Source: Candidatus Bathyarchaeota archaeon (GTDB lineage: Archaea; Thermoproteota; Bathyarchaeia; Bathyarchaeales; Bathycorpusculaceae). From it: a stretch of 64,000 bases of DNA. Position 1 is the first letter of the stretch. Each line of letters begins with the position of its first letter. A program made the position numbers and the translations under genes. Below, in pieces: positions 1-10,331 of this stretch. The stretch is taken from positions 160,001 through 224,000 of the forward strand of contig CAWHXY010000007.1 of NCBI GenBank assembly GCA_963833575.1, read 5' to 3'. Under the pieces are notes generated by a model that saw nothing but the letters and a program-made list of their open reading frames with translations, ran no database searches and was not told the DNA's origin.

Positions 1-194
1 ACTCCCGGTGCAGAAATAGAAATGATAGATGTAGAGATGCCGTTTTTATTCATAATCTGGAGGGTCTTTTTTACATTCCAATCCGGAAATTGCACTCCGA
101 GAGATTTTTTTATACCCTTCTGTGATAGGCTTTCCACGTATTCTTTAGGAATAATGTGATGATGGACATCTATTAGTTCAGATATTTCAGTCAT
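1..194 (-). CDS. Amidohydrolase family 2 protein (5' part only, runs off window)
   Basis: Hand translation from ATG at 194: MTEISELIDVHHHIIPKEY...TSIISISAPG; IDxHxH metal motif and SISAPG are typical of amidohydro_2 decarboxylases. Confidence 0.8.
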   Translation of the reverse strand, partial: MTEISELIDVHHHIIPKEYVESLSQKGIKKSLGVQFPDWNVKKTLQIMNKNGISTSIISISAPG

Positions 195-273
195 TATATC
201 GCCTCTTTGGTTCTTTAAATTAGCAATTATTTACAGTTTAATGCGCTAGTAACACAAACGCTACAATTTGCGT

Positions 274-600
274 TTATAAATCAATGTAGACTTGATTGTC
301 TTTCACTGATATCTTGTATGTCTGCATATCCTTTGCTCCACCTACTATCAGTCTTTTTGCACTAGAAACGTCCTTGCTTACTTTTCCACTTGTGACATCA
401 AATTGGGCATGATGTACTGGACAAATTACAACATTTTTCTCAAGTGTTCCAACTGGCAAGTAACCATGCATATGAGAACAGATGGCATCCATAGCATAGA
501 AATTTCCATCAACATTAGCTACGAGAATTTGTTTATCCTTAACAGTAAATCCTTTCATAGTACCCTTTGCTACGTCAGAGATTTCACAAACTTTTTCCAT
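274..600 (-). CDS. Rieske [2Fe-2S] ferredoxin
   Basis: CSH...CPVH Rieske motifs. Confidence 0.9.
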   Translation of the reverse strand: MEKVCEISDVAKGTMKGFTVKDKQILVANVDGNFYAMDAICSHMHGYLPVGTLEKNVVICPVHHAQFDVTSGKVSKDVSSAKRLIVGGAKDMQTYKISVKDNQVYIDL

Positions 601-1036
601 GTTTTCTATTTCGTCTATTGGGCATTAACCCTACTTGTTGCAGAAATGAAACATTGTCATAGTAATTTGATTCCCGGCTAAACTTGCCATTACGTACCTG
701 ATATATTGAGGTTCCGCGTACTGCAAAGGTCTTGCAGGTGGCGGGTACTGCGTTTTTGCTCATGGTGTTATTGGCAAAAGTGCCAGTCATGACCCACTCA
801 TCACCCGCCCAGTCGCCAGCCCCAAAAAAGGACTTTAGCTCAAAATTTATGTCAGGAAAATCAACCAACATGGTCTTTGTGTACGCGGTTATTTCTGCTT
901 TGCCACGATTGGCGATTCCAAGAGGAACATTCTCTAAAACACCGTCATCCGCAAAGTAAGCGATGATTTTGTCTGCGTCATGAGAATTGACTATTTTTAT
1001 GAATTCCTCAACCATCTTTTTTGTATCCGTTACCAT
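584..1036 (-). CDS. SnoaL-like / NTF2-fold ester cyclase
   Basis: FPD..., EWVMTGT, RG.SIY..RNGK...E.NYYD..LQQVG pattern. Confidence 0.85.
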   Translation of the reverse strand: MVTDTKKMVEEFIKIVNSHDADKIIAYFADDGVLENVPLGIANRGKAEITAYTKTMLVDFPDINFELKSFFGAGDWAGDEWVMTGTFANNTMSKNAVPATCKTFAVRGTSIYQVRNGKFSRESNYYDNVSFLQQVGLMPNRRNRKHGKSL

Positions 1037-1170
1037 CTAAAACTCACCTATTTTTTTCTTCTTAAAACTATATTCGTTTTAATAGTAATGGAAAACCTAG
1101 GGATTAGTTTTGTGGCGGATGCGTCCGTCTTTTCAACAACTTTATTTGATCTGAGGGCTTAGTTTAGCTT

Positions 1171-1824
1171 ATGCGTCGGCTTATTTTGGAGTTTAACAAA
1201 GACGAAAGCTATGGAGATAGTACACCACAACTTAAAAATGTAAAAACCTTAGAGCAGTTGCAGCTTCTCAGGCAGGACCAAGAAGAAATCGCAATGGTGT
1301 GTAGGGTGGAGTTTGAGGGGGCTGTTTCCAACGTTGAAGATTACTTCAAGCTTATCAATGATAATGTTTTTGAGGTCAAGCTTCTTGAACAAGAAAAAAC
1401 AGGATCATACATAATCTTCGTCAAAATAAGACTTACAAAATCGCCAAGCTCGAGTTTTAGTTTTGTGCGAAACGAAGGCAAGTATTTTGTCTCTCGCGAA
1501 GTTCGCGAGGGGAAAGTCAAGTTGACTTTTCTGGGAAGTGTAGGAGAAATTAGAAAAATTCTTGAAGAAGTTAAACGATGGGGGCGACGCTACAGGATTG
1601 TCTCGTTGACAGATGCGAAGTTTTCGCTTGATTCCCCACTTAATGTTTTGACGGAGCAGCAAAGAAAGGTTTTGATTGCCTGCTATAAATTGGGCTACTA
1701 TAACTTGCCGAGAAAAATCAGTTCTGAAGAGTTAGCGAAAAAACTCCGTCTTCACAAATCTGCTTTGGCGGCGCACCGCAGAAAAGCAGAATTACGCATA
1801 CTCACTCAGATGCTAAAGGAATAA
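1171..1824 (+). CDS. Bat-like (HTH_10) transcriptional regulator
   Basis: C-terminal LTEQQRKVL...GYYNLPRKISSEELA..L....HRRKAE motif; divergent from the catabolic genes. Confidence 0.9.
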   Translation: MRRLILEFNKDESYGDSTPQLKNVKTLEQLQLLRQDQEEIAMVCRVEFEGAVSNVEDYFKLINDNVFEVKLLEQEKTGSYIIFVKIRLTKSPSSSFSFVRNEGKYFVSREVREGKVKLTFLGSVGEIRKILEEVKRWGRRYRIVSLTDAKFSLDSPLNVLTEQQRKVLIACYKLGYYNLPRKISSEELAKKLRLHKSALAAHRRKAELRILTQMLKE

Positions 1825-2128
1825 AGGGCGTTGTTAGTTTTAGAGCACACTTAAACCGCTCTCCCAATTTCTGGGTGAAGGGGACAAACAAGAAAAGGAG
1901 CATAGAGCGATTGCTCGCTTAAATTTCAGCGCAGAGGATATAGCCTCTATCTTAAAAAACTATCAATGTTTGTTTGAAGGTTAGTTTATTGTTAATTTCT
2001 TGGGTCGAAGTAAACGTATAATGAAAAGGGCTCCTTTGCCTTCTTTGGCTCTCCCAAGCAAAGCGTTGATTTCATGGCAGAACTCGAAGCTTGAAACGGT
2101 TGGGTCTCTACCGGGCTTACCCCCGAAA

Positions 2129-2141
2129 TGGTCTGAGTCCC
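2129..2141 (+). repeat. 13-bp sequence TGGTCTGAGTCCC, inverted copy at 7961-7973
   Basis: Exact reverse complement GGGACTCAGACCA lies between the integrase start and the tRNA-Val 3' end. Confidence 0.6.
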
Positions 2142-2247
2142 TACGCTAAAAATTATTGAATAAGCTTTTTTCATGAATTTTGACCTAATTATAATCTGCA
2201 CCGCTCAAGTGTCTTTTTTTCTACGAAAATTCTATGCGTTATGTCAC

Positions 2248-2997
2248 TTAACCGTCGTATTTCTGTGCGACAGCGTAAAGCAAGCCCATTTTTGCCGTTA
2301 TTGAAACGTTGACGAATCCGATTTTCTCCAAAACAGCCCTTAACTTCTCTGGGCATAATCCCGGCGGTTCTTTTAATCCGAAAACGTCTTCGAAGAGAAT
2401 CTGGCTAAACATGCTATCGGTTTTCTCAGTTTCAATTGCCAAAAGCATCCCATCTTTTTTCAAGCTCAAATAGAGCTGGTTTACGTAGTTGACAATATCA
2501 GATGTTTCATTCCCGATTAAGCATCCGACTCCTAAAAAGCTCAAAGCCTTATCAAATGTGTTGGCGGAAACTTTCAAATCACTCGAATATGTTACGTCGG
2601 CACCTTTTAGAAAACGTTTCAACTCGTCATGGTCCAATGTGGAGAGCACTTTCTCTTTGCGGTTGATTTCTATAAGTCCCTTCACAATCCCCAAAATTCT
2701 GTTGACATGCTCAGAGGTGTCACAGCAAAATTTGACCGAACTAGTCAGATGATCATGCGTCTTTTGGGTGCCAACTTCTGTTAAAAAGTAGACTTTCTTG
2801 CGTGTTGCACCGTTGGTTTCAACTTTAAAGTCGATTAGGCCTTTTGTTTTGAGTACGTCAAGGACGGGGTAGATTGTGCCGGGGCTTCTGACTCTAAGAC
2901 GTTTCATCAGGTCTACTCCGCAGAGTTGCTCGTCTCTTAGAAGCATCATTATTTTGGCTTGCAGGGTGCCTGCGATTTCAGGTGAGGGTGTCCGCAT
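2248..2997 (-). CDS. PadR-family regulator fused to a degenerate methyltransferase-like domain
   Basis: SPGTIYPVL..L...GLI...RKKVYFLTE.G PadR motif; CC in linker; C-terminal TFD...LKKDG.L...LEKIGF resembles the back half of a class I MTase. Confidence 0.8.
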   Translation of the reverse strand: MRTPSPEIAGTLQAKIMMLLRDEQLCGVDLMKRLRVRSPGTIYPVLDVLKTKGLIDFKVETNGATRKKVYFLTEVGTQKTHDHLTSSVKFCCDTSEHVNRILGIVKGLIEINRKEKVLSTLDHDELKRFLKGADVTYSSDLKVSANTFDKALSFLGVGCLIGNETSDIVNYVNQLYLSLKKDGMLLAIETEKTDSMFSQILFEDVFGLKEPPGLCPEKLRAVLEKIGFVNVSITAKMGLLYAVAQKYDG

Positions 2998-3010
2998 GTT
3001 GATTGTCCAC

Positions 3011-3073
3011 TATCGGATACCAATACGAAATCTTATAAGCTTATCGGTATTTCCGATATTGGTGTGACCGATA
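3011..3073. promoter_or_regulatory. Divergent promoter with three TATYGG-N3/5-CCRATA palindromes around a palindromic CTTATAAG box
   Basis: Sites at 3011-3025, 3042-3058 and 3057-3073; CTTATAAG at 3032-3039. Confidence 0.7.
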
Positions 3074-3074
3074 C

Positions 3075-3989
3075 ATGACACAAGAAATGAAAAAACTAAT
3101 CGAAAACAGAAAATTCCTATTCTTCGGCGGAAAAGGAGGCGTAGGAAAAACAACAATTGCAGCCGCAACAGCCACATGGTTAGCCGACCAAGGCTGTAAC
3201 ACATTAATCGTCGCCACTGACCCAACAGTTAGCCTCTCAGCAACATACGAACAAAAAATAGGCGAAACCGAAATCACCAAAATCGACAAAATCGAAAACC
3301 TCTGCGGATTAAACATCAACCCCAAAAAGGCAACAGGCGTCTTCCAAACCAGACTACAAGGAATGATGCAAAACTTCGACCAAATCCTTGGAAAAGACGC
3401 CATCAGCAGTCCATGCGCAGAAGAAATGGCAGCTTTTGACCAATTCGTAACCTATCTTGGAGACAAAAAATACGACCACGTAGTATTCGACACAGCGCCC
3501 ACAGGCCATACACTCAGGGAGCTTTCGATGCCTTTTGATTGGTCGGGATACATGACCAACCAAATCAAGAACCGAAAAGAACTATCCGAAGCATTAGGCG
3601 GCGTGGATGAAAGCACGATAGAGGGTCTAAAGAAAGAGAAACAGCGATACGACCAAGCAGTAAGAAGCCTCTCAGACGAAAGCATATCTGCATTCAACCT
3701 AGTGATGTTGCCCGAAAAGCTGCCCATTGAGGAAACCGCTAGAGCCATGGCGGATTTGTCCAAGTTTGGCATAAACGTAGCAGCTTTAATTGTGAACGAG
3801 GTTATTCCCAAGGAGGTTCTAAATGGCAACTGGTTCCTTGAAAGACGAAGAGCAACACAAGAGAAGTACTTCCGAGAAATCGAGATTAGATTTAAGGATG
3901 TACTAAGAAAGGATGTCCCTCTCTTCGACACGGACATTTACGGTATTCAAAGCCTCAGAAAGGTTGGGAAGCACCTCTATGACCAATAA
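3075..3989 (+). CDS. arsA: ArsA/GET3-family anion-transporting ATPase (single domain)
   Basis: GKGGVGKTT, TDP, DTAPTGHTLR motifs; arsenic gene context. Confidence 0.9.
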   Translation: MTQEMKKLIENRKFLFFGGKGGVGKTTIAAATATWLADQGCNTLIVATDPTVSLSATYEQKIGETEITKIDKIENLCGLNINPKKATGVFQTRLQGMMQNFDQILGKDAISSPCAEEMAAFDQFVTYLGDKKYDHVVFDTAPTGHTLRELSMPFDWSGYMTNQIKNRKELSEALGGVDESTIEGLKKEKQRYDQAVRSLSDESISAFNLVMLPEKLPIEETARAMADLSKFGINVAALIVNEVIPKEVLNGNWFLERRRATQEKYFREIEIRFKDVLRKDVPLFDTDIYGIQSLRKVGKHLYDQ

Positions 3990-4323
3990 AATGTAAATCT
4001 CAATCCTTACTTTTTCTTGCTGTAATCCAGCTCTTAAGCCGATGGATGAACAGTATGTTTCAAAAGTAAAGGAAGTGCTGAGCAAAATAAACATCGAAGC
4101 GAAAGTTGAAATTGTAACTGCCACTGAAGTTCGTTATGGTCGGGAAGTCGGCGATATGAGTAAACTTGGGTCCTTGTTCAACAAATATGGCATGGAAGCA
4201 GCTCCGGCTTTGTTCATAAACGGCGAATTAATGCTCTATGGCGGTGTGCCTTCCACTGAAAAGCTATCTGAAGTAATTCAGAAGGCTGGTCAAGACGCAT
4301 CAAAAAAGTCGTCTTTTGTTTAA
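3979..4323 (+). pseudogene. ArsD-like thioredoxin-fold metallochaperone interrupted by in-frame TAA at 3994-3996 (93-aa ORF 4042-4323 remains)
   Basis: ATG 3979 overlaps the arsA stop and is in frame with 4042: MTNKM*ISILTFSCCNP...; C-terminal YGMEAAPALFINGELMLYGGVPSTEKL resembles ArsD. Confidence 0.65.
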
Positions 4324-4435
4324 ATGCTATTTTTCCCTCCATTTTTCTTTTAACCGTGCTGCGGAAAAAAATCCTCTCTGACCTAAAAGCAACTATCAGG
4401 AGACAAAAAAACTACAGTTTTTAAACAAAAGCAGT

Positions 4436-4747
4436 ATGCTTACTTATCAAGATGATCAAGCTGTGCCAAAGTTAGCTAAACCCACATGGTTTTACATTTT
4501 AGAAGCAGCAGAAGAGTTTAAGGGAAAACCATTCACTGTACCACAAATTATAGACAAGGTTCGTGAGAGGGCTCCAAGATCAAAACCATACACCATCCGT
4601 TGCAACATCTATGGATTGACTCCAAACCACCACTCAAGCAAAAATTATCCATCCCTTAAGAAACATGCCTCTTTCAAATACATTGGAAACGGGCAATTTC
4701 AAACACTGGAAAAAACAAGTATAACTAGTAAAACAGAAACAGAATGA
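4436..4747 (+). CDS. Small winged-helix-like hypothetical protein
   Basis: ILEAAEE..KPFTVPQIIDKV...TIRC...F...GNGQF wHTH-like pattern. Confidence 0.55.
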   Translation: MLTYQDDQAVPKLAKPTWFYILEAAEEFKGKPFTVPQIIDKVRERAPRSKPYTIRCNIYGLTPNHHSSKNYPSLKKHASFKYIGNGQFQTLEKTSITSKTETE

Positions 4748-4848
4748 TTTTAAGCACTTTATATGCCCGAGAATATTACCGGTTGGTCTACCCATAACAA
4801 AATTTAAATGTATTTATGGTTAAACTAACGTTAAGCAGGTGCTTGTTT

Positions 4849-5442
4849 ATGGGCCAAGAATGGAAAAAATGGACAAAAAACGATCTGATCTTTGGAATTA
4901 TCCTTCCCACAATCGCAGTTTTTGTCATTGTGTTAATTTCAAAACTCCCCTCCCTATTTGGGGGAGGCTTCGGAATCGTTACTGGACTTACAATGGAAAT
5001 ACTGGAACTTGTTGTCATAGTTGGTGTTCCCTTAGCTCTTGGTCTGCTTTGGAATCAATGGGCAGGCGGAGCCTCAGGATTCTTAATGGGTACATTCTAT
5101 GCGTTGTATTGGGCAAACAGTTTTCACGGAATTTCAGGTTCGGGCACAGTCCTGCTGGCTTATATCGTAAGCCCGATGTTAATCGGCTATATGGCTGGAG
5201 CATTAAATAAGCGGTCAGACAATTTCAGGAGATTATTAATTTCTGCCATTGTCGCTGCTACAATTGGAGGCATAGTAATGTTTAGTGTATTCCAAATGTC
5301 TCGTGCAAACGTTGTCACAGGGGTAACAGGATTTGCATTGACTGTCTTGGCACGTATGCTAGCAGCTGTGCTAACCGCTGTTGTGGTCAAAGTTTTCTGC
5401 TGGTATGGCATGGGCGCCAAAAAAGACCCAAATATTACTTAA
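4849..5442 (+). CDS. Integral membrane protein (~6 TM), function unknown
   Basis: Hydrophobic ORF; ATG 4849 follows GCAGGTG RBS-like sequence (track start 4816). Confidence 0.75.
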   Translation: MGQEWKKWTKNDLIFGIILPTIAVFVIVLISKLPSLFGGGFGIVTGLTMEILELVVIVGVPLALGLLWNQWAGGASGFLMGTFYALYWANSFHGISGSGTVLLAYIVSPMLIGYMAGALNKRSDNFRRLLISAIVAATIGGIVMFSVFQMSRANVVTGVTGFALTVLARMLAAVLTAVVVKVFCWYGMGAKKDPNIT

Positions 5443-5465
5443 CCCACTTTTTTTGGGGGCCTTCT

Positions 5466-5627
5466 ATGAGTCATGTTTATTGTGATAAAAAAAATTGCAT
5501 AAACTACAAAGAAGGACAATGTTCCCTTACTAACCCTGAAAAAATAGGGAACGATTGTCTTGATTTTGAAGATGCAATGGATGCTCTAAGACTTAGGGCA
5601 GACGCCATCAAAGGAACCCTCGGCTAA
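5466..5627 (+). CDS. 53-aa four-Cys protein (DUF1540-like)
   Basis: Hand translation MSHVYCDKKNCINYKEGQCSLTNPEKIGNDCLDFEDAMDALRLRADAIKGTLG. Confidence 0.65.
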   Translation: MSHVYCDKKNCINYKEGQCSLTNPEKIGNDCLDFEDAMDALRLRADAIKGTLG

Positions 5628-5639
5628 AAAATTGGGCTT

Positions 5640-6074
5640 TCAACTTTCTGTGAGGTCTCTTTCTTTCAACCATGCTTTCGTCTTTTCGTTGATTTGATCT
5701 CTTACTTCTCGGAATTTAGCTAATTTTTCTTCTTCTGTTCCTTGAAACGCTGCGGGGTCTTCGAAGGGCCAGTACAATCTTGTGGATACGCCTGGTATGG
5801 TGGGACACGCCTCTTCTGCTTTTACACAAACCGTTATGACTATCCCAAAATGTATCTTTCCAAGATACTCCGACAAAGCCTTAGAATGCTGATTACTTAG
5901 GTCATATCCTAATTCTCTCATTACCTTGACAGTGTAGGGGTGAATGGGCCGAGGATCGAAACCTGCACTATAAACTTCAAAATAATCACCAGCATATTTC
6001 CTCAAGAATGCCTCAGCTATTTGGCTCCGCGCCGAATTTCCTGTACAAAGAAAAATGACTTTGGTCTTTCCCAA
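5640..6074 (-). CDS. arsC: Arsenate reductase, thioredoxin-coupled LMW-PTP type
   Basis: CTGNSARSQ P-loop, VC...ACP, WPFEDP, FREVRDQI. Confidence 0.9.
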   Translation of the reverse strand: MGKTKVIFLCTGNSARSQIAEAFLRKYAGDYFEVYSAGFDPRPIHPYTVKVMRELGYDLSNQHSKALSEYLGKIHFGIVITVCVKAEEACPTIPGVSTRLYWPFEDPAAFQGTEEEKLAKFREVRDQINEKTKAWLKERDLTES

Positions 6075-6149
6075 ATCCTAATCAAAACCTCACTTAAGTA
6101 TTGGGGTACGCAAATTAATTTCTTTTCTCACTTACCATCAAGGAACCGC

Positions 6150-6491
6150 TTATGTTGTCCAAAATGAGTAGACTTCAACGTTATCTTTTTCAAATTGTTT
6201 CTTCAGAATGGCCTTGACCTCGTCCTCATCTAGGTTCAGAATCCCTCTCTTGTCTTTGTGCAATGGTATGCCAGTCTCCCTTAATGCGCCATCTTTTGGG
6301 AAGTCAAAGAACATAAAATATCGTTTATCATGCAACATTATGATTCTCAGGGTTGAAAGTTCTCTGTTTGGAGAGAGACCATTTTGCTCAAGGATAAAAG
6401 TTATTGAACGTGGTTTCTTTTCACTGACTAATCGTTTGTATGTTTCCCAATCTCTTATTCTTACATGACCGTCATTCGTCTCATTAGTCAT
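6150..6491 (-). CDS. Hypothetical protein in ars operon
   Basis: 113-aa ORF, co-oriented and tightly packed. Confidence 0.7.
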   Translation of the reverse strand: MTNETNDGHVRIRDWETYKRLVSEKKPRSITFILEQNGLSPNRELSTLRIIMLHDKRYFMFFDFPKDGALRETGIPLHKDKRGILNLDEDEVKAILKKQFEKDNVEVYSFWTT

Positions 6492-6497
6492 CAGTTG

Positions 6498-6677
6498 TTA
6501 ACCCTCGCTGCAAGCAACCCCTTGATCCATAGCGTTGACGTATTTTTCAACGTCTTCTCTGCTTTTAAATGGACCATAAATAATGTCGTATTGAGGATAT
6601 GTTTCCTTGCCGGATTCTCTTTCGCTCTCGAATATTGTTGGTTTAGCCTTTTCTCTTAATCCAACGTACAATTTCAT
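6498..6677 (-). CDS. 59-aa hypothetical protein ending in ACSEG
   Basis: Hand translation MKLYVGLREK...YDIIYGPFKSREDVEKYVNAMDQGVACSEG; AGGAG RBS; fills the gap in the operon. Confidence 0.7.
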   Translation of the reverse strand: MKLYVGLREKAKPTIFESERESGKETYPQYDIIYGPFKSREDVEKYVNAMDQGVACSEG

Positions 6678-6682
6678 TCTAA

Positions 6683-7081
6683 TTACTCCTTTAGTCCCGC
6701 AATCAGCTCCTGGACTAGGCGGTCAATTTGGTCTCTGATTTCCCGAACTTTTTGTACGGGTTTACCTTTTGGGTCTTCAAGGTGCCATTCGACTGTCGGC
6801 TTAAAGAAGGGCCCAGGGCAAACGCCTTGGTCATTGCAGCCCATGGTGACAATCAAGTCTGAATTCATTGCCATTTTTGCCGTTATCAGTTTTGGCTGGT
6901 TTGCTGAGATGCCGATGCCTTTTTCCTTCAAAACATCGACAACCAGCGGGTTAACCCTCTCGGCTGGCTTATTGCCGGCACTAGAAGCGATAACTTTTCC
7001 TTTTCCATGTTTTTTAGCAAAAGCCTCTGCCATTTGGCTTCTACCTGCATTCTCCACACATACAAATAAAATTCTCTTCAA
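6683..7081 (-). CDS. arsC: Second arsenate reductase, LMW-PTP type
   Basis: CVENAGRSQMAE, TMGC...VCP, WHLEDP, VREIRDQI. Confidence 0.9.
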   Translation of the reverse strand: MKRILFVCVENAGRSQMAEAFAKKHGKGKVIASSAGNKPAERVNPLVVDVLKEKGIGISANQPKLITAKMAMNSDLIVTMGCNDQGVCPGPFFKPTVEWHLEDPKGKPVQKVREIRDQIDRLVQELIAGLKE

Positions 7082-7407
7082 TGCTGATCTACCCCTATTT
7101 TAGTTCTTTTTTCAATCTTTACGCTGTAGGTATTTCTTAGCGACTTGATGATTTCATGCGTCTCTTTTTTTGATTGATGCTTAATGGCGCCTGCTGGACA
7201 TATTCCGTCGCATCCTGTGCATAATACTACGCAAGAGTTTGGGTTTTTTACAACTGACTTCTTTTTGTCTTCGCGTTCTTCCAGTTCGTACACACCCAGC
7301 TTGCAGTAATCTGCGCATTTTCCACAGTTGATGCACTTTTGGTAGTCTATCGTGGGGTACCAGGGTATTTTGTTTCGGGGGATTCCATGCCAAGTTTCTT
7401 CAGACAT
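7078..7407 (-). CDS. 2x[4Fe-4S] ferredoxin
   Basis: CINCGKCADYC and CVVLCTGCDGICP motifs; GGTGA RBS. Confidence 0.9.
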   Translation of the reverse strand: MSEETWHGIPRNKIPWYPTIDYQKCINCGKCADYCKLGVYELEEREDKKKSVVKNPNSCVVLCTGCDGICPAGAIKHQSKKETHEIIKSLRNTYSVKIEKRTKIGVDQH

Positions 7408-7922
7408 CTCTTCACCTTTGCTGCATATTGTTTTGAGTTACCTAAGACTTCAATGCGAACGCCAGAATGTGCTACAAATACGCTTGCAACTCGCATTTTT
7501 TTGTCTCCCGAAAGAAATATTCGCTTGAGTTCCTCCTTTGTGGGAACTCGCTCATCCCTAAGTGAAGGAGCATCCCCCGCGCCTCTTATCTTGATTTTTC
7601 TACGAATATCTTTTCCATTATGAGAAAGCCAAGATCTAATCGCCTTAAACACAGATTCCGTGTAACTTCCTGCATGACCAGCCTTCTCCATCGACGAGAC
7701 AAGATCGAGCAGCAGATTATACACTTCGACCTCATTTAGGGCAATCAATCCTTTCGGGGTGGTGCCATGATTCTCACAGAAAAAGCCAAGCCTTCTCAAG
7801 TACACGTCAGCTGTTACAGATGAGCCCCTAGAAACGTTATTATGCCAACGTTTCACGTCCACGTCCTCTAACAAGAATTGGTACTTTCGTTTTGGTGGAA
7901 AAGACTTTGCGGCTGGCGCCAT
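7347..7922 (-). pseudogene. Truncated tyrosine integrase (N-terminal domain to first catalytic Arg)
   Basis: TADVYLRRLGFFC...AIRSWL...RVPTKEELKRIF...HSGVRIEVLGN then similarity ends; no HxxR or Tyr; starts 60 bp from tRNA 3' end. Confidence 0.8.
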
Positions 7923-7982
7923 AACTAATTATTTAGAGCGGTTGCCATAAAAGCGTTGTGGGGACTCAGACCAGAGATGGAG

Positions 7983-8057
7983 TGGGCCGGACCGGATTCG
8001 GACCGGCGACCTTCTGCACGTCAAGCAGATGTCCTAACCAGGCTAGACGACCGGCCC
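7983..8057 (-). tRNA. tRNA-Val(GAC)
   Basis: GGGCCGG acceptor, TCTGC-TTGACGT-GCAGA anticodon arm; T-loop reads TCCGAAT. Confidence 0.93.
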
Positions 8058-8255
8058 ACAAATGCTTATCTTTTTTACAGTATTTTCCTATATAGATGCT
8101 TAGTCTAATAGGCTGTAATGCAATATCAAAATTCCCACTTCTATTAATCTATTTCCATGTTTAAAAAAACTGTAGACACTTGTTGAATCATATTTTGTTA
8201 TGATAGCAGTTTTAAGGTACATTATGTATATAGTGAGATTCAGGGCAAAAGGGCT

Positions 8256-9506
8256 ATGGCAACTGACGAAGTGCTCAGTTTACTAGTTGATTTCATAAAT
8301 AAAAATTCGAACGTAGCTGACATACAATGGGACCGACGCATGAGTCCACGGTTGCTTTTTAATCCGTACTCAGAAAAATATGAAGAGCGCAAAACGATTG
8401 CCCACTACTTTCTATTGGCTGCATCAATACTTGACGATACAGTCGTAGGTTACCCTGAAAATGCTCGCATGCTTCTTGGTTATCTTCATGAAGCCTTCGG
8501 AACGAGCCTTTTCGAAATAAAAAAAGGGCATATATTCGAAGAAGAAATCGTAAAATGCGATTTTTATCATGACTTGGGGCCAAACAAGAAAGCAGCATCA
8601 GAAATTTTAGCTTCAGTTAACTTATTTGTTAAGAATAATGCTGAAAGAAACTTGCTAAAATACGCCCAAAAATTCAGCAAGCCAAAAATTTTCGTTGATG
8701 ATATTTCGCAAAATATCAAAGCATTGGGTGGACCGCATGTTGATAAAGCATGGATTTATCTACGTTGGATGGTTCGGCCTCAACCTGACCTGCAAATCTA
8801 TGATCATCTGTTACCGGAAGACCTTTATGTTCCCTTAACAAAGGAAAATGCAAACGTCGCCGCCAGCTTAAGTTTAATACCTTCAGCTTCGCCGTCTTTG
8901 TGGCGAGATGAAAAAACAGCTGCTGATGGCAGGCAAAAAATAACTGATTTTGCAAAACGACTCTTTCCCTTAGACCCCGCAAAGGTTGACTATCCATTTT
9001 TCCTCTTAGGCAGATGGCTTAAACAAAAAACACTCAACCGCTACACATTGAAAACAGCGCTGGATTTTCTTGATCGCATGCAGACAATAACTGGTCAATC
9101 CCAAGCTTATTACCAAAAAATGAGCCGCTACAAAAGTGGATGGGAGAAAAAAACTGCTCTTACCCTTTTAAAAATGCATATTCCATACGGCTATGAAACT
9201 ATAAGCTTCCCATTACCTAACAATGAGGTTTATACCCCTGATTTCATTTTGGAAAAAAAACTCAATGGAAGAAAAATTGTACTTGAACCTCATTTTGAAA
9301 TGACTAAAACACAGGCTCGCAAATACGCGTTGTTCAAACGAACTTATGGTCACGAATTCATTCTGATACTTTTACTTAAAAACGATCTAATTCCGCTGTA
9401 TCATCAAAGAAAAATATTAACTGATGATGTTTGCGATGATGTTTGGCCAATTGAGTTTATTCATTTGTTAGCTGAAAAAATTAGAAGAGGAACCTACGGC
9501 GAGTAG
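8256..9506 (+). CDS. DUF2400/TIGR02757-like (HhH-GPD-related) domain fused to a T7 endonuclease I-like PD-(D/E)xK domain
   Basis: YLRWMVR.PDL...LYVPL...LFPLDPAKVDYPFFLLG; C-terminal YKSGWE...YGYE...YTPDFIL...LEPH. Confidence 0.75.
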   Translation: MATDEVLSLLVDFINKNSNVADIQWDRRMSPRLLFNPYSEKYEERKTIAHYFLLAASILDDTVVGYPENARMLLGYLHEAFGTSLFEIKKGHIFEEEIVKCDFYHDLGPNKKAASEILASVNLFVKNNAERNLLKYAQKFSKPKIFVDDISQNIKALGGPHVDKAWIYLRWMVRPQPDLQIYDHLLPEDLYVPLTKENANVAASLSLIPSASPSLWRDEKTAADGRQKITDFAKRLFPLDPAKVDYPFFLLGRWLKQKTLNRYTLKTALDFLDRMQTITGQSQAYYQKMSRYKSGWEKKTALTLLKMHIPYGYETISFPLPNNEVYTPDFILEKKLNGRKIVLEPHFEMTKTQARKYALFKRTYGHEFILILLLKNDLIPLYHQRKILTDDVCDDVWPIEFIHLLAEKIRRGTYGE

Positions 9507-9564: not shown

Positions 9565-9927
9565 ATGACGCAGGACAGTTTCAAACCAATAGTAGTATGG
9601 CTCGTTCTTAACGGAAAAACCGAAGAAGCACTCACACTGTTAGCAAAAAACTACAAAGTCAATGTTCCTGAACTCAAAGTCGGTTTACCAAAAGGGCACA
9701 AAATAAAAGCGTTCGGCTGCTATACGGCAAAAAATCAAACTATATCAGTTTTAAACAGCGACATATTGGTAAATCCATTTGTTATCGTGCATGAGTTTTA
9801 TCATCATTTGCGCAGTAAAGGGGTTGACGGAGTGCATCGTGGAACGGAAGGTAACGCTGACAAATTTGCTCTTGACTTCCTGAGGGAATATGAAGCAGCT
9901 GTAAAAAAAGCTCAGGAAGTTACTTAG
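9565..9927 (+). CDS. Small HExxH zinc metallopeptidase-like protein (ImmA/IrrE-like)
   Basis: VHEFYHH plus downstream E..AD.FA motif. Confidence 0.7.
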   Translation: MTQDSFKPIVVWLVLNGKTEEALTLLAKNYKVNVPELKVGLPKGHKIKAFGCYTAKNQTISVLNSDILVNPFVIVHEFYHHLRSKGVDGVHRGTEGNADKFALDFLREYEAAVKKAQEVT

Positions 9928-10331
9928 AAATCTTTTCCTAAGGCGGCAATTACCTCAATAGGTAATCTGTCAGCGTTGGAATCGTATGCTGCAACGCTGT
10001 TTAGACCTTCAAATGGGTACCCCACGATCATTAGGATTCGACCAAAAAAATAGTTCATATCCACATGGCTGGGTGAAATGTTGCCTGAAGGGTGGGAATG
10101 TACTGTGCCTACTAACGAAAAGTCTCCAGAAAACATGTAAGGGTTAAAGTGAGCAAATCCCTGCCCGTGAACGGCGAAGGGTGCTAGAACAAGATCTGTT
10201 ATTTTGATAATTCCTTTGTTCTTTTTGCCTCTTAACAATAGGAAGCTTTCTCTGGGGTAAAGTTGTTTGGCTCCATCGTAAATAGCGTCAAGTATATCTT
10301 TTGGAACCTGAACGAGGGTTGCTGTTGCCAT
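9924..10331 (-). CDS. JAB/MPN (JAMM) domain metalloprotease
   Basis: PRE...VGTVHSHPSG..SPSHVD. Confidence 0.9.
   Translation of the reverse strand: MATATLVQVPKDILDAIYDGAKQLYPRESFLLLRGKKNKGIIKITDLVLAPFAVHGQGFAHFNPYMFSGDFSLVGTVHSHPSGNISPSHVDMNYFFGRILMIVGYPFEGLNSVAAYDSNADRLPIEVIAALGKDF

Follow-up and report, generated by a model that had tools for sequence, protein, structure and literature searches.

A candidate reader-cutter endonuclease of Bathyarchaeia joining a DUF2400 domain, predicted to be inactive as a glycosylase, to a T7 endonuclease I-like nuclease

The fusion gene and its relatives

From the 64,000-nucleotide stretch of a Candidatus Bathyarchaeota archaeon genome analyzed here (contig CAWHXY010000007.1, positions 160,001 to 224,000; in the following, the window), the open reading frame (ORF) list gives a gene at 8256..9506 on the plus strand encoding 416 amino acids (aa) plus stop codon, in which a DUF2400 domain (aa 1-255, 8256..9020, +) is joined by a linker consisting mostly of one long helix (aa 256-289, 9021..9122, +) to a putative nuclease domain of the PD-(D/E)xK type and T7 endonuclease I lineage (aa 290-416, 9123..9503, +). 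An earlier note made from the sequence had proposed a glycosylase-fold reader coupled to a nuclease, and this proposal is strengthened by the HhH-GPD fold found for the N-terminal domain (Z scores of 16.5 to 12 in structural alignments) and by the loss of a conserved HhH lysine besides the catalytic aspartate. In molecular terms, the protein is quite probably a base-flipping DNA reader unable to excise the flipped base, combined with an active metal-dependent nuclease.

A word-indexed sequence search yielded 587 relatives at E ≤ 1e-3; the 120 listed are 388-442 aa long, share 85-99% identity and carry PF09674 as the only precomputed domain. Applying the same threshold, an exhaustive search of 1.84 billion representatives gave 169 proteins, which fall into four kinds: full-length fusions with identities as low as 30%, DUF2400 proteins of about 250-300 aa that are not fused, C-domains of about 110-200 aa that stand alone, and C-domains in other architectures, where they are coupled to zinc-ribbon or NUMOD3 modules. 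The 15 full-length fusions align end to end. With 587 relatives and with key residues invariant in 199 of 199 unique orthologs, 8256..9506 is a real gene, beyond chance. All named members are annotated in public records only as "DUF2400 family protein" or hypothetical, and the nuclease half is invisible in current public annotation.

The C-terminal nuclease domain

For the last ~125 aa, a T7 endonuclease I pattern with EPH replacing E-x-K had been described in the earlier note, and its motifs are indeed present, with SGWE at aa 294-297, (G)YE at 312-314 (YE at 313-314), YTPDF at 326-330 and LEPH at 343-346. Scored alone, the protein reaches 17.3 bits with Phage_endo_I (PF05367) and thus remains below the cut-off of 29.1, and a single-sequence search of the PDB sequences found T7 endonuclease I alone (2pfj, E 0.16). 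Nevertheless, a profile of 27 C-domain relatives matches four T7 endonuclease I sequences of the PDB at E values from 2.4e-15 (1m0d) to 2e-12, so that the homology holds despite the missed Pfam cut-off, which one relative (P0258) exceeds with 32.7 bits. In this profile match, SG-E, YTPDF and "lEpHg", the latter corresponding to "vETKG" of T7, are in register, placing His346 at the position of T7 K67. The T7-type acidic triad is kept, as E297 (codon 9144..9146, +), D329 (9240..9242, +) and E344 of the E344-P345-H346 motif (9285..9293, +) align with the SGLE, YTPDF and vET (ETK) motifs of 1m0d, respectively; the corresponding residues in T7 endonuclease I are presumably E20, D55 and E65. Matches to the phage families phrog_945 ("endonuclease", E 7.5e-10) and phrog_9019 ("Holliday junction resolvase", E 5.5e-5) were obtained as well.

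E297 and E344 are found in all 40 aligned relatives and D329 in 39 of them, while the E-x-? position is occupied by His in 36, Lys in three and Gln in one (23, three and one, respectively, among the 27 relatives of the profile). In the fusions, E, P and H of the motif are invariant (15/15). From these alignments, E-x-H is seen as a true variant at the homologous site, which occurs in free-standing nucleases too. Histidine is also used in the active site of Vsr. The legend to one figure of a PD-(D/E)XK survey (PMC3424549) counts this enzyme among the active-site variants; E-x-H is not listed in the survey's available text, although its supplements may hold such a case.

The AlphaFold (AF2) model of the C-domain (pLDDT 91.7, 40-row alignment) agrees with a PD-(D/E)xK fold, which the earlier note had required for its proposal to stand. 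Foldseek matches in the PDB are the R2 endonuclease domain, Can2, PspGI, Bax1, FokI, XisH and Hjc. Among predicted structures, phage models labelled "Endonuclease I" and "Holliday junction resolvase" are matched too (E from 1.5e-5, TM ≤ 0.63). T7 endonuclease I itself is missing from the PDB list obtained with the monomer model, as might be expected of an enzyme that is, according to the available text of PMC3424549, a domain-swapped dimer and would not superpose on a monomer. By homology, residues ~290-416 are assigned to the PD-(D/E)xK nucleases as a relative of T7 endonuclease I sharing the SG-E, YTPDF and E-x-[K/H]-G motifs, from which the bathyarchaeal protein differs in the replacement of Lys67 by an invariant His, in the fusion to a 290-aa N-terminal region and in missing the PF05367 cut-off. 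Nuclease activity with His346 in place of Lys is predicted. Being invariant over hundreds of sequences, this E-P-H variant of endonuclease I represents a clean case for studying the role of Lys in PD-(D/E)xK catalysis.

The homology to T7 endonuclease I, the phrog_9019 match and the phage resolvase models among the fold matches might also be taken to indicate a junction- or structure-specific resolvase that uses its glycosylase-like domain only as a generic DNA-binding handle. However, the invariance of the pocket residues of this domain (199 of 199 orthologs, R174 in 198) argues for a specific ligand pocket and not for a mere handle, and a resolvase is rated the least probable of all readings weighed here.

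The N-terminal DUF2400 domain

All DUF2400/TIGR02757 signatures claimed before for the N-terminal part are found in place (YLRWMVR at aa 168-174, VPLT at 192-195 and DPAKVDYPFF at 240-249), and PF09674 (DUF2400) is the only Pfam family matched above its cut-off by the window protein (38.1 bits versus 25, E 2.3e-9), with model positions 136-223 of 225 alone being covered. The equivalog cut-off of TIGR02757 is not reached (38.2 versus 139.2 bits). Since a profile of the N-domain gave no significant match among the PDB sequences (best E 0.17), the fold was identified through structure comparison. The AF2 model of aa 1-280 (46-row alignment) is all-helical, with a pLDDT of 96.7 and a pTM of 0.93, and contains the linker helix at 262-279. 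Its best Foldseek match in the PDB is the queuine-salvage enzyme DUF2419/Qng1 (E 3.8e-4, TM 0.60), followed by AGOG, Ogg, MutY and EndoIII. VIA-align ranks MjOgg first (Z 16.5 over 196 residues), before DUF2419 (16.1 over 235 residues), SsOgg (15.9), EndoIII (14.3), MutY (12.5) and AGOG (12.0). Helical models may, as VIA-align warns, reach Z values of ~13 by chance, but the top scores are higher and the list is homogeneous, all 50 listed entries being HhH-superfamily glycosylases. For residues 1 to ~255, the DUF2400 part, an HhH-GPD glycosylase fold is modelled with high confidence. The two-lobe HhH fold is the same as in MjOgg, SsOgg, Pa-AGOG and Qng1/DUF2419, whereas sequence identity to these archaeal Ogg, AGOG and Qng1 enzymes amounts to only 8-14% in the VIA-align rows.

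The HhH Gly-rich hairpin and the basic helix are retained in the fusions, the hairpin being two to four residues shorter than in non-fused DUF2400 proteins. Several of the latter (P0183, P0201, P0205, P0206, and P0240) possess Cys-rich tails that by eye resemble the Fe-S loop of EndoIII and MutY, which would argue for a family acting on DNA, not on free nucleotides.

With Qng1, an enzyme having an enclosed pocket and binding free nucleotides, as best Foldseek match (Z 16.1 over 235 residues in VIA-align), with Can2 among the fold matches of the C-domain and with two paralog loci adjoining QueT or QueC plus QueT genes, a ligand-gated nuclease can be envisaged, in which the dead DUF2400 domain binds a small nucleotide or nucleobase signal and switches the nuclease on, as CARF does for Can2. 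Yet DNA-bound archaeal Ogg scores equally high (Z 16.5), the Gly-rich hairpin and the basic helix are retained, some non-fused DUF2400 proteins show the Fe-S-like tails and both Que loci stem from one genus, possibly reflecting a single event. Gating by a ligand is considered very unlikely, ranking above the resolvase only.

Loss of the glycosylase residues

According to the available text on Qng1 (PMC9881137), an Asp and a Lys are the only two residues that never vary among HhH glycosylases, and catalysis depends critically on each of them. In non-fused DUF2400 proteins, an invariant Lys (R-K-K-x-W) and an invariant Asp (P-[LV]-D) are spaced by 32 residues, the same distance as between K140 and D172 of AGOG and between K199 and D231 of StQng1. 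The AGOG set consisted of ten genes from genomes of the same phylum, one of which (L021) reproduces the K140/D172 numbering, which we take to be that of Pa-AGOG. The fusions share the RWMVR, P-L-x and DPxKVDYPFFLLGR motifs as well as the fold with DUF2400/TIGR02757, whose Pfam cut-off the window protein passes, but the invariant Lys and Asp are gone, the hairpin is shorter and the C-terminal nuclease is added. The hitherto uncharacterised DUF2400/TIGR02757 family gains a concrete and testable identity, as it would be a lineage of HhH-GPD glycosylases marked by a Lys...Asp pair like that of AGOG and Qng1.

In the 46-row alignment, position 195 (codon 8838..8840, +), where the earlier note had pointed to PLT instead of PLD, is Thr or Ser in 17 of 17 sequences of the fusion clade (the 15 full-length fusions and two shorter entries) and Asp in 29 of 29 other DUF2400 proteins. 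Position 163 (codon 8742..8744, +), 32 residues upstream and Asp in the window protein, is Lys in all 29 Asp-bearing DUF2400 proteins and in none of the 15 full-length fusions, which show D, N, D, E, E, E, E, G, D, A, G, E, E, E, and I instead; the sequences being mutually related, this comparison of 15 with 29 describes a pattern rather than a statistic. The adjacent K164 is retained in 15 of 17 fusion-clade sequences. Hence, both hallmark residues are lost solely in the fused clade, where the nuclease is gained.

The assignment of these positions draws on several lines. Local hhalign comparison of the DUF2400 and AGOG alignments spans the whole domain (E 1.2e-4, probability 55%; global mode, 17.7%), with the best blocks placing AGOG "PIPVD" on "VPL[D/T]" and "IDTLLWLAGR" on "VDYPFFLLGR". 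Mapping of the Lys via the AGOG alignments proved unreliable, and the 32-residue spacing was used instead. In the model, T195 directly precedes the helix 196-204, and the catalytic Asp of HhH-GPD enzymes is located at such a helix N-terminus.

The pocket and scaffold residues R170, W171, R174, D178, P193, D240, and D245 are invariant in both fused and non-fused groups, the last two delimiting the common D240-P-A-K-V-D245 motif (8973..8990, +). D245 aligns with the Asp of the AGOG motif "IDTLLWLAGR" (hhalign), and D298 of Qng1 is described in the available text of PMC9881137 as anchoring a guanine-like ring and discriminating against adenine. Taken together, this weakly hints at a guanine-type ligand of the reader pocket.

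Glycosylase activity of the N-domain is predicted to be lost. An opposing view would be a still active, Asp-independent glycosylase, acting for example on labile cationic lesions, with the nuclease cutting the resulting abasic site. For comparison, TAG of E. coli is an HhH glycosylase without the Asp. Moreover, the pocket residues are common to fused and non-fused forms, and K164 is kept in most fusion-clade sequences (15/17). On the other hand, Lys163 and Asp195 are replaced together in 15 of 15 fusions, Thr and Ser are helix N-cap residues and would fit a purely structural replacement, and precisely this pair is deemed critical superfamily-wide in the available text of PMC9881137. Persisting excision activity is considered unlikely, the third-ranked reading after the two concerned with restriction and repair discussed below.

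Conservation and distribution

Among 199 unique orthologs of 63-99% identity, T195, D240, D245, E297, E314, D329, E344, P345, H346, and K356 are invariant, and so are R170, W171, and D178, while R174 is found in 198. Mean identity to the window protein in this set is 0.83 for the reader, 0.905 for the linker and 0.90 for the nuclease, and both halves of the fusion are under purifying selection.

In a first draw, the gene was present in 24 of 24 sampled genomes of the genus and in none of 16 genomes from other genera of the order. A class-wide draw gave 38 of 39 species genomes of the genus, 47 of 103 of the family and 62 of 401 of the class, covering 15 of 131 genera. The fusion is therefore not unique to the assembly, a point on which the earlier note had made its proposal depend, and it is no assembly oddity but a fixed chromosomal gene in its Bathyarchaeia genus. 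Besides this genus, four sister genera within the family hold orthologs with at least 59% identity. At 35-38% identity, fusions come mostly from one other family (five genomes of f24), and several pseudogenised pieces occur as well; the divergent copies in G392 (contig C92) and G097 (C7) contain several in-frame stops and represent decayed genes. The ortholog in G022 is split across two contigs (C33:16940-17707 and C67:5207-5734) due to an assembly break.

From named records, 164 loci were confirmed and 80 kept. Of these, 73 bear titles of the Bathyarchaeia/Bathyarchaeota type, including "Bathy6" isolates and Ca. Bathycorpusculum, and the other seven are labelled "uncultured archaeon" (four), Crenarchaeota, Nitrososphaerota, and Limnocylindrales bacterium (one each). 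The Candidatus Limnocylindrales bacterium record (L066) holds an 86%-identical ortholog in full archaeal synteny (tRNA-Val, HExxH ORF, JAB, and tRNA-Ser), for which mis-binning of an archaeal contig is the most likely explanation. In the distant clusters, named members belong to Bathyarchaeota/Ca. Termiticorpusculum and Nitrososphaerales, besides one partial record labelled Parcubacteria.

Genomic context of the window-type gene

In the window-type locus, the genes are ordered tRNA-Val, fusion gene, HExxH ORF, JAB gene and tRNA-Ser. In 11 orthologous loci, viewed with 1.5-kb flanks, the HExxH ORF was found 11 times, JAB and tRNA-Val 10 times each, tRNA-Ser nine times and the integrase-like fragment of the window not at all. 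Likewise, the 62 loci (of the 80 kept) with at least 73% identity comprise the HExxH ORF in 59, JAB in 58 and tRNA-Val and tRNA-Ser in 54 cases each, the three loci without HExxH ORF and JAB being contig ends. At the 18 loci with 63-69% identity, in contrast, none of the HExxH ORF, JAB, tRNA-Val and tRNA-Ser was detected as neighbour. There, 12 of 18 loci were clustered and show neighbors that are housekeeping-like as judged by eye without a library scan, among which a 441-aa synthase, a radical-SAM-like protein and an aspartate carbamoyltransferase-like protein recur. Because the neighbors change between these two clades, the window-type gene is considered a self-contained unit with no fixed partner. 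Within the 11 orthologous loci, the fusion is 85-93% identical, compared to 56-89% for JAB and 74-82% for the HExxH ORF.

Such properties would suit a housekeeping, lesion-directed repair endonuclease, which would employ the same mechanism as proposed for restriction (see below) but on host DNA, as a form of alternative excision repair. The reader would recognise a damaged base, probably one derived from guanine, and the nuclease would nick next to it in the manner of Endo V, EndoQ, and EndoMS/NucS instead of the base being removed. The core status in 38 of 39 species genomes of the genus, the strict synteny in the absence of mobile or defence neighbors at the window-type locus, the slow evolution of a fusion more conserved than its JAB and HExxH neighbors and the parent fold being a repair fold all speak for this alternative, which is possible and ranked second.

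Divergent copies, paralog and non-fused relatives

The genome itself encodes a second fused paralog of 449 aa with 35% identity on contig C4 (G000:C4:401368-402657; L014:964-2313, -), while a non-fused DUF2400 was not found in it. VPLT, YKPDF, and LEPH are all retained in this paralog, which has two AsnC-type regulators as flanking genes; the paralog type occurs in some genomes of the genus only and is broken in one of them (G010).

For the more distant relatives, 10 loci at 35-43% identity, hand-chosen among the matches of the two genome draws, were inspected, comprising nine fusions and one non-fused DUF2400. From 147 called ORFs, the 99 within ~5 kb were scanned versus Pfam and 55 of these 99 versus PADLOC, the latter scan omitting the fusions and any ORF in which a housekeeping domain was clear. 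Defence-type neighbors are present at four of the nine divergent-fusion loci. In L112, a 1450-aa helicase-nuclease (MkoA E 1.2e-47, DpdJ E 5e-24) is encoded 37 nt upstream on the same strand; in L116, BrxL (E 6e-111) and HmaC/DUF499 (E 1e-57) are accompanied by a PIN protein close by; in L117, PDC-S02 (E 7.8e-37) lies immediately upstream; and L110 harbors HerA/mad8 (E 9e-17) and a NUDIX protein (PDC-S07, E 5e-16). That the divergent members stand beside defence genes, are patchily distributed and are sometimes pseudogenised counts against a repair function, although one paralog is found beside the XPB-Bax1 pair and another beside HerA and DinB-family genes, as would be in line with repair.

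Genes for transport or synthesis of 7-deazaguanine precursors were noticed at two loci of the same genus, i.e., QueT at L114:6255-6752 and QueC plus QueT at L115:5953-7171, within ~1.2 kb of the fusion. With the 7-deazaguanine nucleotide glycosylase Qng1 ranking high among the structural matches, this is noteworthy, but the two loci may be a single inherited arrangement.

At the non-fused locus (L118), the Asp-bearing DUF2400 gene adjoins one for a DUF6884/YaaA-like protein (7234-7941 -, 7953-8759 -), and in two library proteins (P0150 and P0159) DUF6884 and DUF2400 are fused. DUF6884 is tied by the Pfam curators to DNA-lesion binding (PMC11701544, available text), which suggests a two-part lesion-handling module and can be added to the arguments for the repair alternative. 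A terminase-large-subunit-like ORF is located ~3.5 kb away in the same locus.

Comparison with known systems and proposed function

Literature searches for DUF2400 and TIGR02757 found nothing relevant on either family. Accordingly, the statement of the earlier note that the fusion is undescribed stands for the DUF2400-nuclease fusion itself, but not for its design principle, which is in print for the END nucleases. As reported in the available text of a 2025 bioRxiv preprint (PMC12191111), phages with hypermodified DNA are restricted by a PLD nuclease fused to an EndoIII/Ogg domain that has no catalytic activity ("iEndoIII"), and swapping the sensor domain shifted the preferred phage modification, suggesting to its authors that the sensor sets specificity. 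The same sensor is also paired there with a "NucS-like" PD-DExK nuclease or with McrB, and END-Mag, the PD-DExK form with an archaeal-Ogg-like sensor, targets phages with modified G. In common with the bathyarchaeal protein, END nucleases are single-gene systems in which a nuclease is fused to an HhH glycosylase-fold domain without catalytic residues that is a sensor of non-canonical bases (PMC12191111). The closest likeness is to END-Mag (MDV2503288), archaeal Ogg being the top structural match here, albeit the two are likened by description only. Several features differ from those of the END nucleases as described in that text. Their sensor is of the EndoIII/Ogg type and C-terminal to the nuclease, whereas DUF2400 is N-terminal and related at the fold level only; their nuclease is PLD or "NucS-like", whereas it is of T7 endonuclease I lineage with E-P-H here; and they have been reported from bacteria and metagenomes, with bacterial hosts, whereas the present gene is archaeal, core and syntenic in its genus. 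Hence, the design principle is already known, while the available text does not describe a DUF2400 sensor, an E-P-H nuclease, the sensor-first order, archaeal hosts or core-gene behavior. The fusion would represent an independent archaeal reinvention of the combination of inactive glycosylase sensor and nuclease, which suggests that this design is general and modular.

Incision beside an aberrant base rather than excision is also known from Endo V, EndoQ, EndoMS/NucS, and Vsr, among which NucS and Vsr have the PD-(D/E)xK fold. These enzymes, however, are not known to use a glycosylase-fold reader, and no homology to the protein described here was detected beyond the common nuclease superfamily.

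The favored, though still tentative reading, ranked first, is a single-chain END-type reader-cutter endonuclease restricting invading DNA with modified bases, the gene having since become fixed in this Bathyarchaeia genus. The DUF2400 reader, retaining the fold, the Gly-rich hairpin and the pocket residues R170, W171, R174, D178, D240, and D245, would still bind to DNA, with a non-canonical base being flipped into the pocket but not excised, as both residues for excision are lost (Lys163 to Asp/Glu, Asp195 to Thr) while fold and pocket are kept. The flipped base would probably be guanine-derived, considering the alignment of D245 with the base-anchoring Asp motif of AGOG. The cutter, with E297, D329, and E344 as metal-binding residues and with His346, might then cleave the backbone near the flipped base. 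Both the base specificity and the antiviral role are deduced from these comparisons and are to be understood as conditional. The reading is further favored by the nuclease domain being more conserved than the reader (0.90 versus 0.83), by the alternation of His and Lys at one aligned nuclease position among relatives and by the patchy spread at class level (15 of 131 genera) with pseudogenised copies. In addition, the genome encodes Nth, a second EndoIII-like protein, an AlkA/Ogg-like and an Ogg-like protein and a member of the Fpg family, so that there is no obvious repair gap to fill. The idea that the fusion substitutes for a missing 8-oxoG glycosylase was rejected, as Ogg-like and Fpg-family genes are present. 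Profile searches of the genome with PF09171 (AGOG) and PF05367 gave no match, but this result is without weight since the control genomes were blank too.

Several observations weigh against an antiviral function. The window ortholog group behaves like a housekeeping gene (38 of 39 genus genomes, strict synteny), with no defence neighbors at window-type loci and housekeeping-like neighbors, by eye, in the 63-69% clade. Five of the nine divergent loci are without clear defence genes; L109, L111, and L113 show nothing telling, L115 has the QueC and QueT neighbors and in L114, which also contains the QueT gene, the repair-type pair XPB and DUF790 (Bax1) is directly downstream. PADLOC models for helicases and ATPases are prone to cross-match housekeeping proteins, e.g., PDC-M37B with ClpB in L109, and the window protein and its paralog match none of the PADLOC 2.0 families at E ≤ 0.1. 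On the molecular side, the residue mapping combines a profile alignment of 55% probability with spacing and helix position, without superposition, and as seen with TAG from E. coli, some HhH glycosylases work without the Asp.

A repair function might, in its broadest form, mean a new archaeal repair route, in which an inactivated glycosylase is the lesion reader for an endonuclease I-type nickase with E-P-H and the fusion, as core gene and not part of defence, is the founding member; this, too, is a possible but doubtful proposal. If true, END-type architectures would stand for a general conversion of base-excision into incision enzymes, employed for genome maintenance as well as for immunity. 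Restriction of modified invading DNA is placed first, as repair is confronted with the set of Nth, Ogg-like, AlkA/Ogg-like, and Fpg-family enzymes already in the genome, with the defence neighbors of divergent members and with the finding that the sole experimentally tested proteins of the same design are antiviral, going by the available text of PMC12191111. Should recognition be of one defined base, modified or damaged, the enzyme might also become a reagent for mapping it.

Other features of the locus

The HExxH ORF (9565..9927, +) starts 59 nt downstream of the fusion gene and encodes a 120-aa protein with similarity to phrog_87 ("metallo-protease", E 8.3e-7) and a faint lead to Peptidase_M78. 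This small HExxH protease is an orphan confined to Bathyarchaeota clusters. The Prok-JAB gene (9924..10331, -) is convergent with it, both overlapping by 4 nt. HExxH ORF and JAB were considered as functional partners of the fusion and rejected, being syntenic within the clade of at least 73% identity only; they were detected neither in the 18 loci of 63-69% identity nor beside the nine divergent fusions.

On the other side of the fusion gene, tRNA-Val (7982..8057, -) stands beside an ORF of 191 aa (7347..7922, -) that has no match in Pfam, NCBIfam, PADLOC, and PHROG. Its language-model features are like those of N-terminal (SAM-like) integrase fragments, with a score of 0.98 to a Bathyarchaeota cluster named "Integrase/recombinase (Fragment)", and among the 80 related loci only three have this ORF next to tRNA-Val. 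The distance from tRNA-Val to the fusion gene ranges from ~230 to 2,770 bp across these loci, and the tRNA-Val site resembles a hotspot of integration at which an integrase has decayed, although no repeat of tRNA-Val of at least 14 nt, i.e., an att site, was found in window positions 1..7900. Left of tRNA-Val, at 4042..7407, a thioredoxin-like ORF, a DUF7669 protein (Pfam), a membrane protein, two ArsC/LMW-phosphatase-like ORFs and a ferredoxin-like ORF are encoded, the last four being named by eye. The seven ORF queries from this segment had no match in any of the 80 related loci apart from ArsC-like hits in L084, which are located on the opposite side of the fusion gene, and 4042..7407 is probably a strain-specific island inserted at tRNA-Val.

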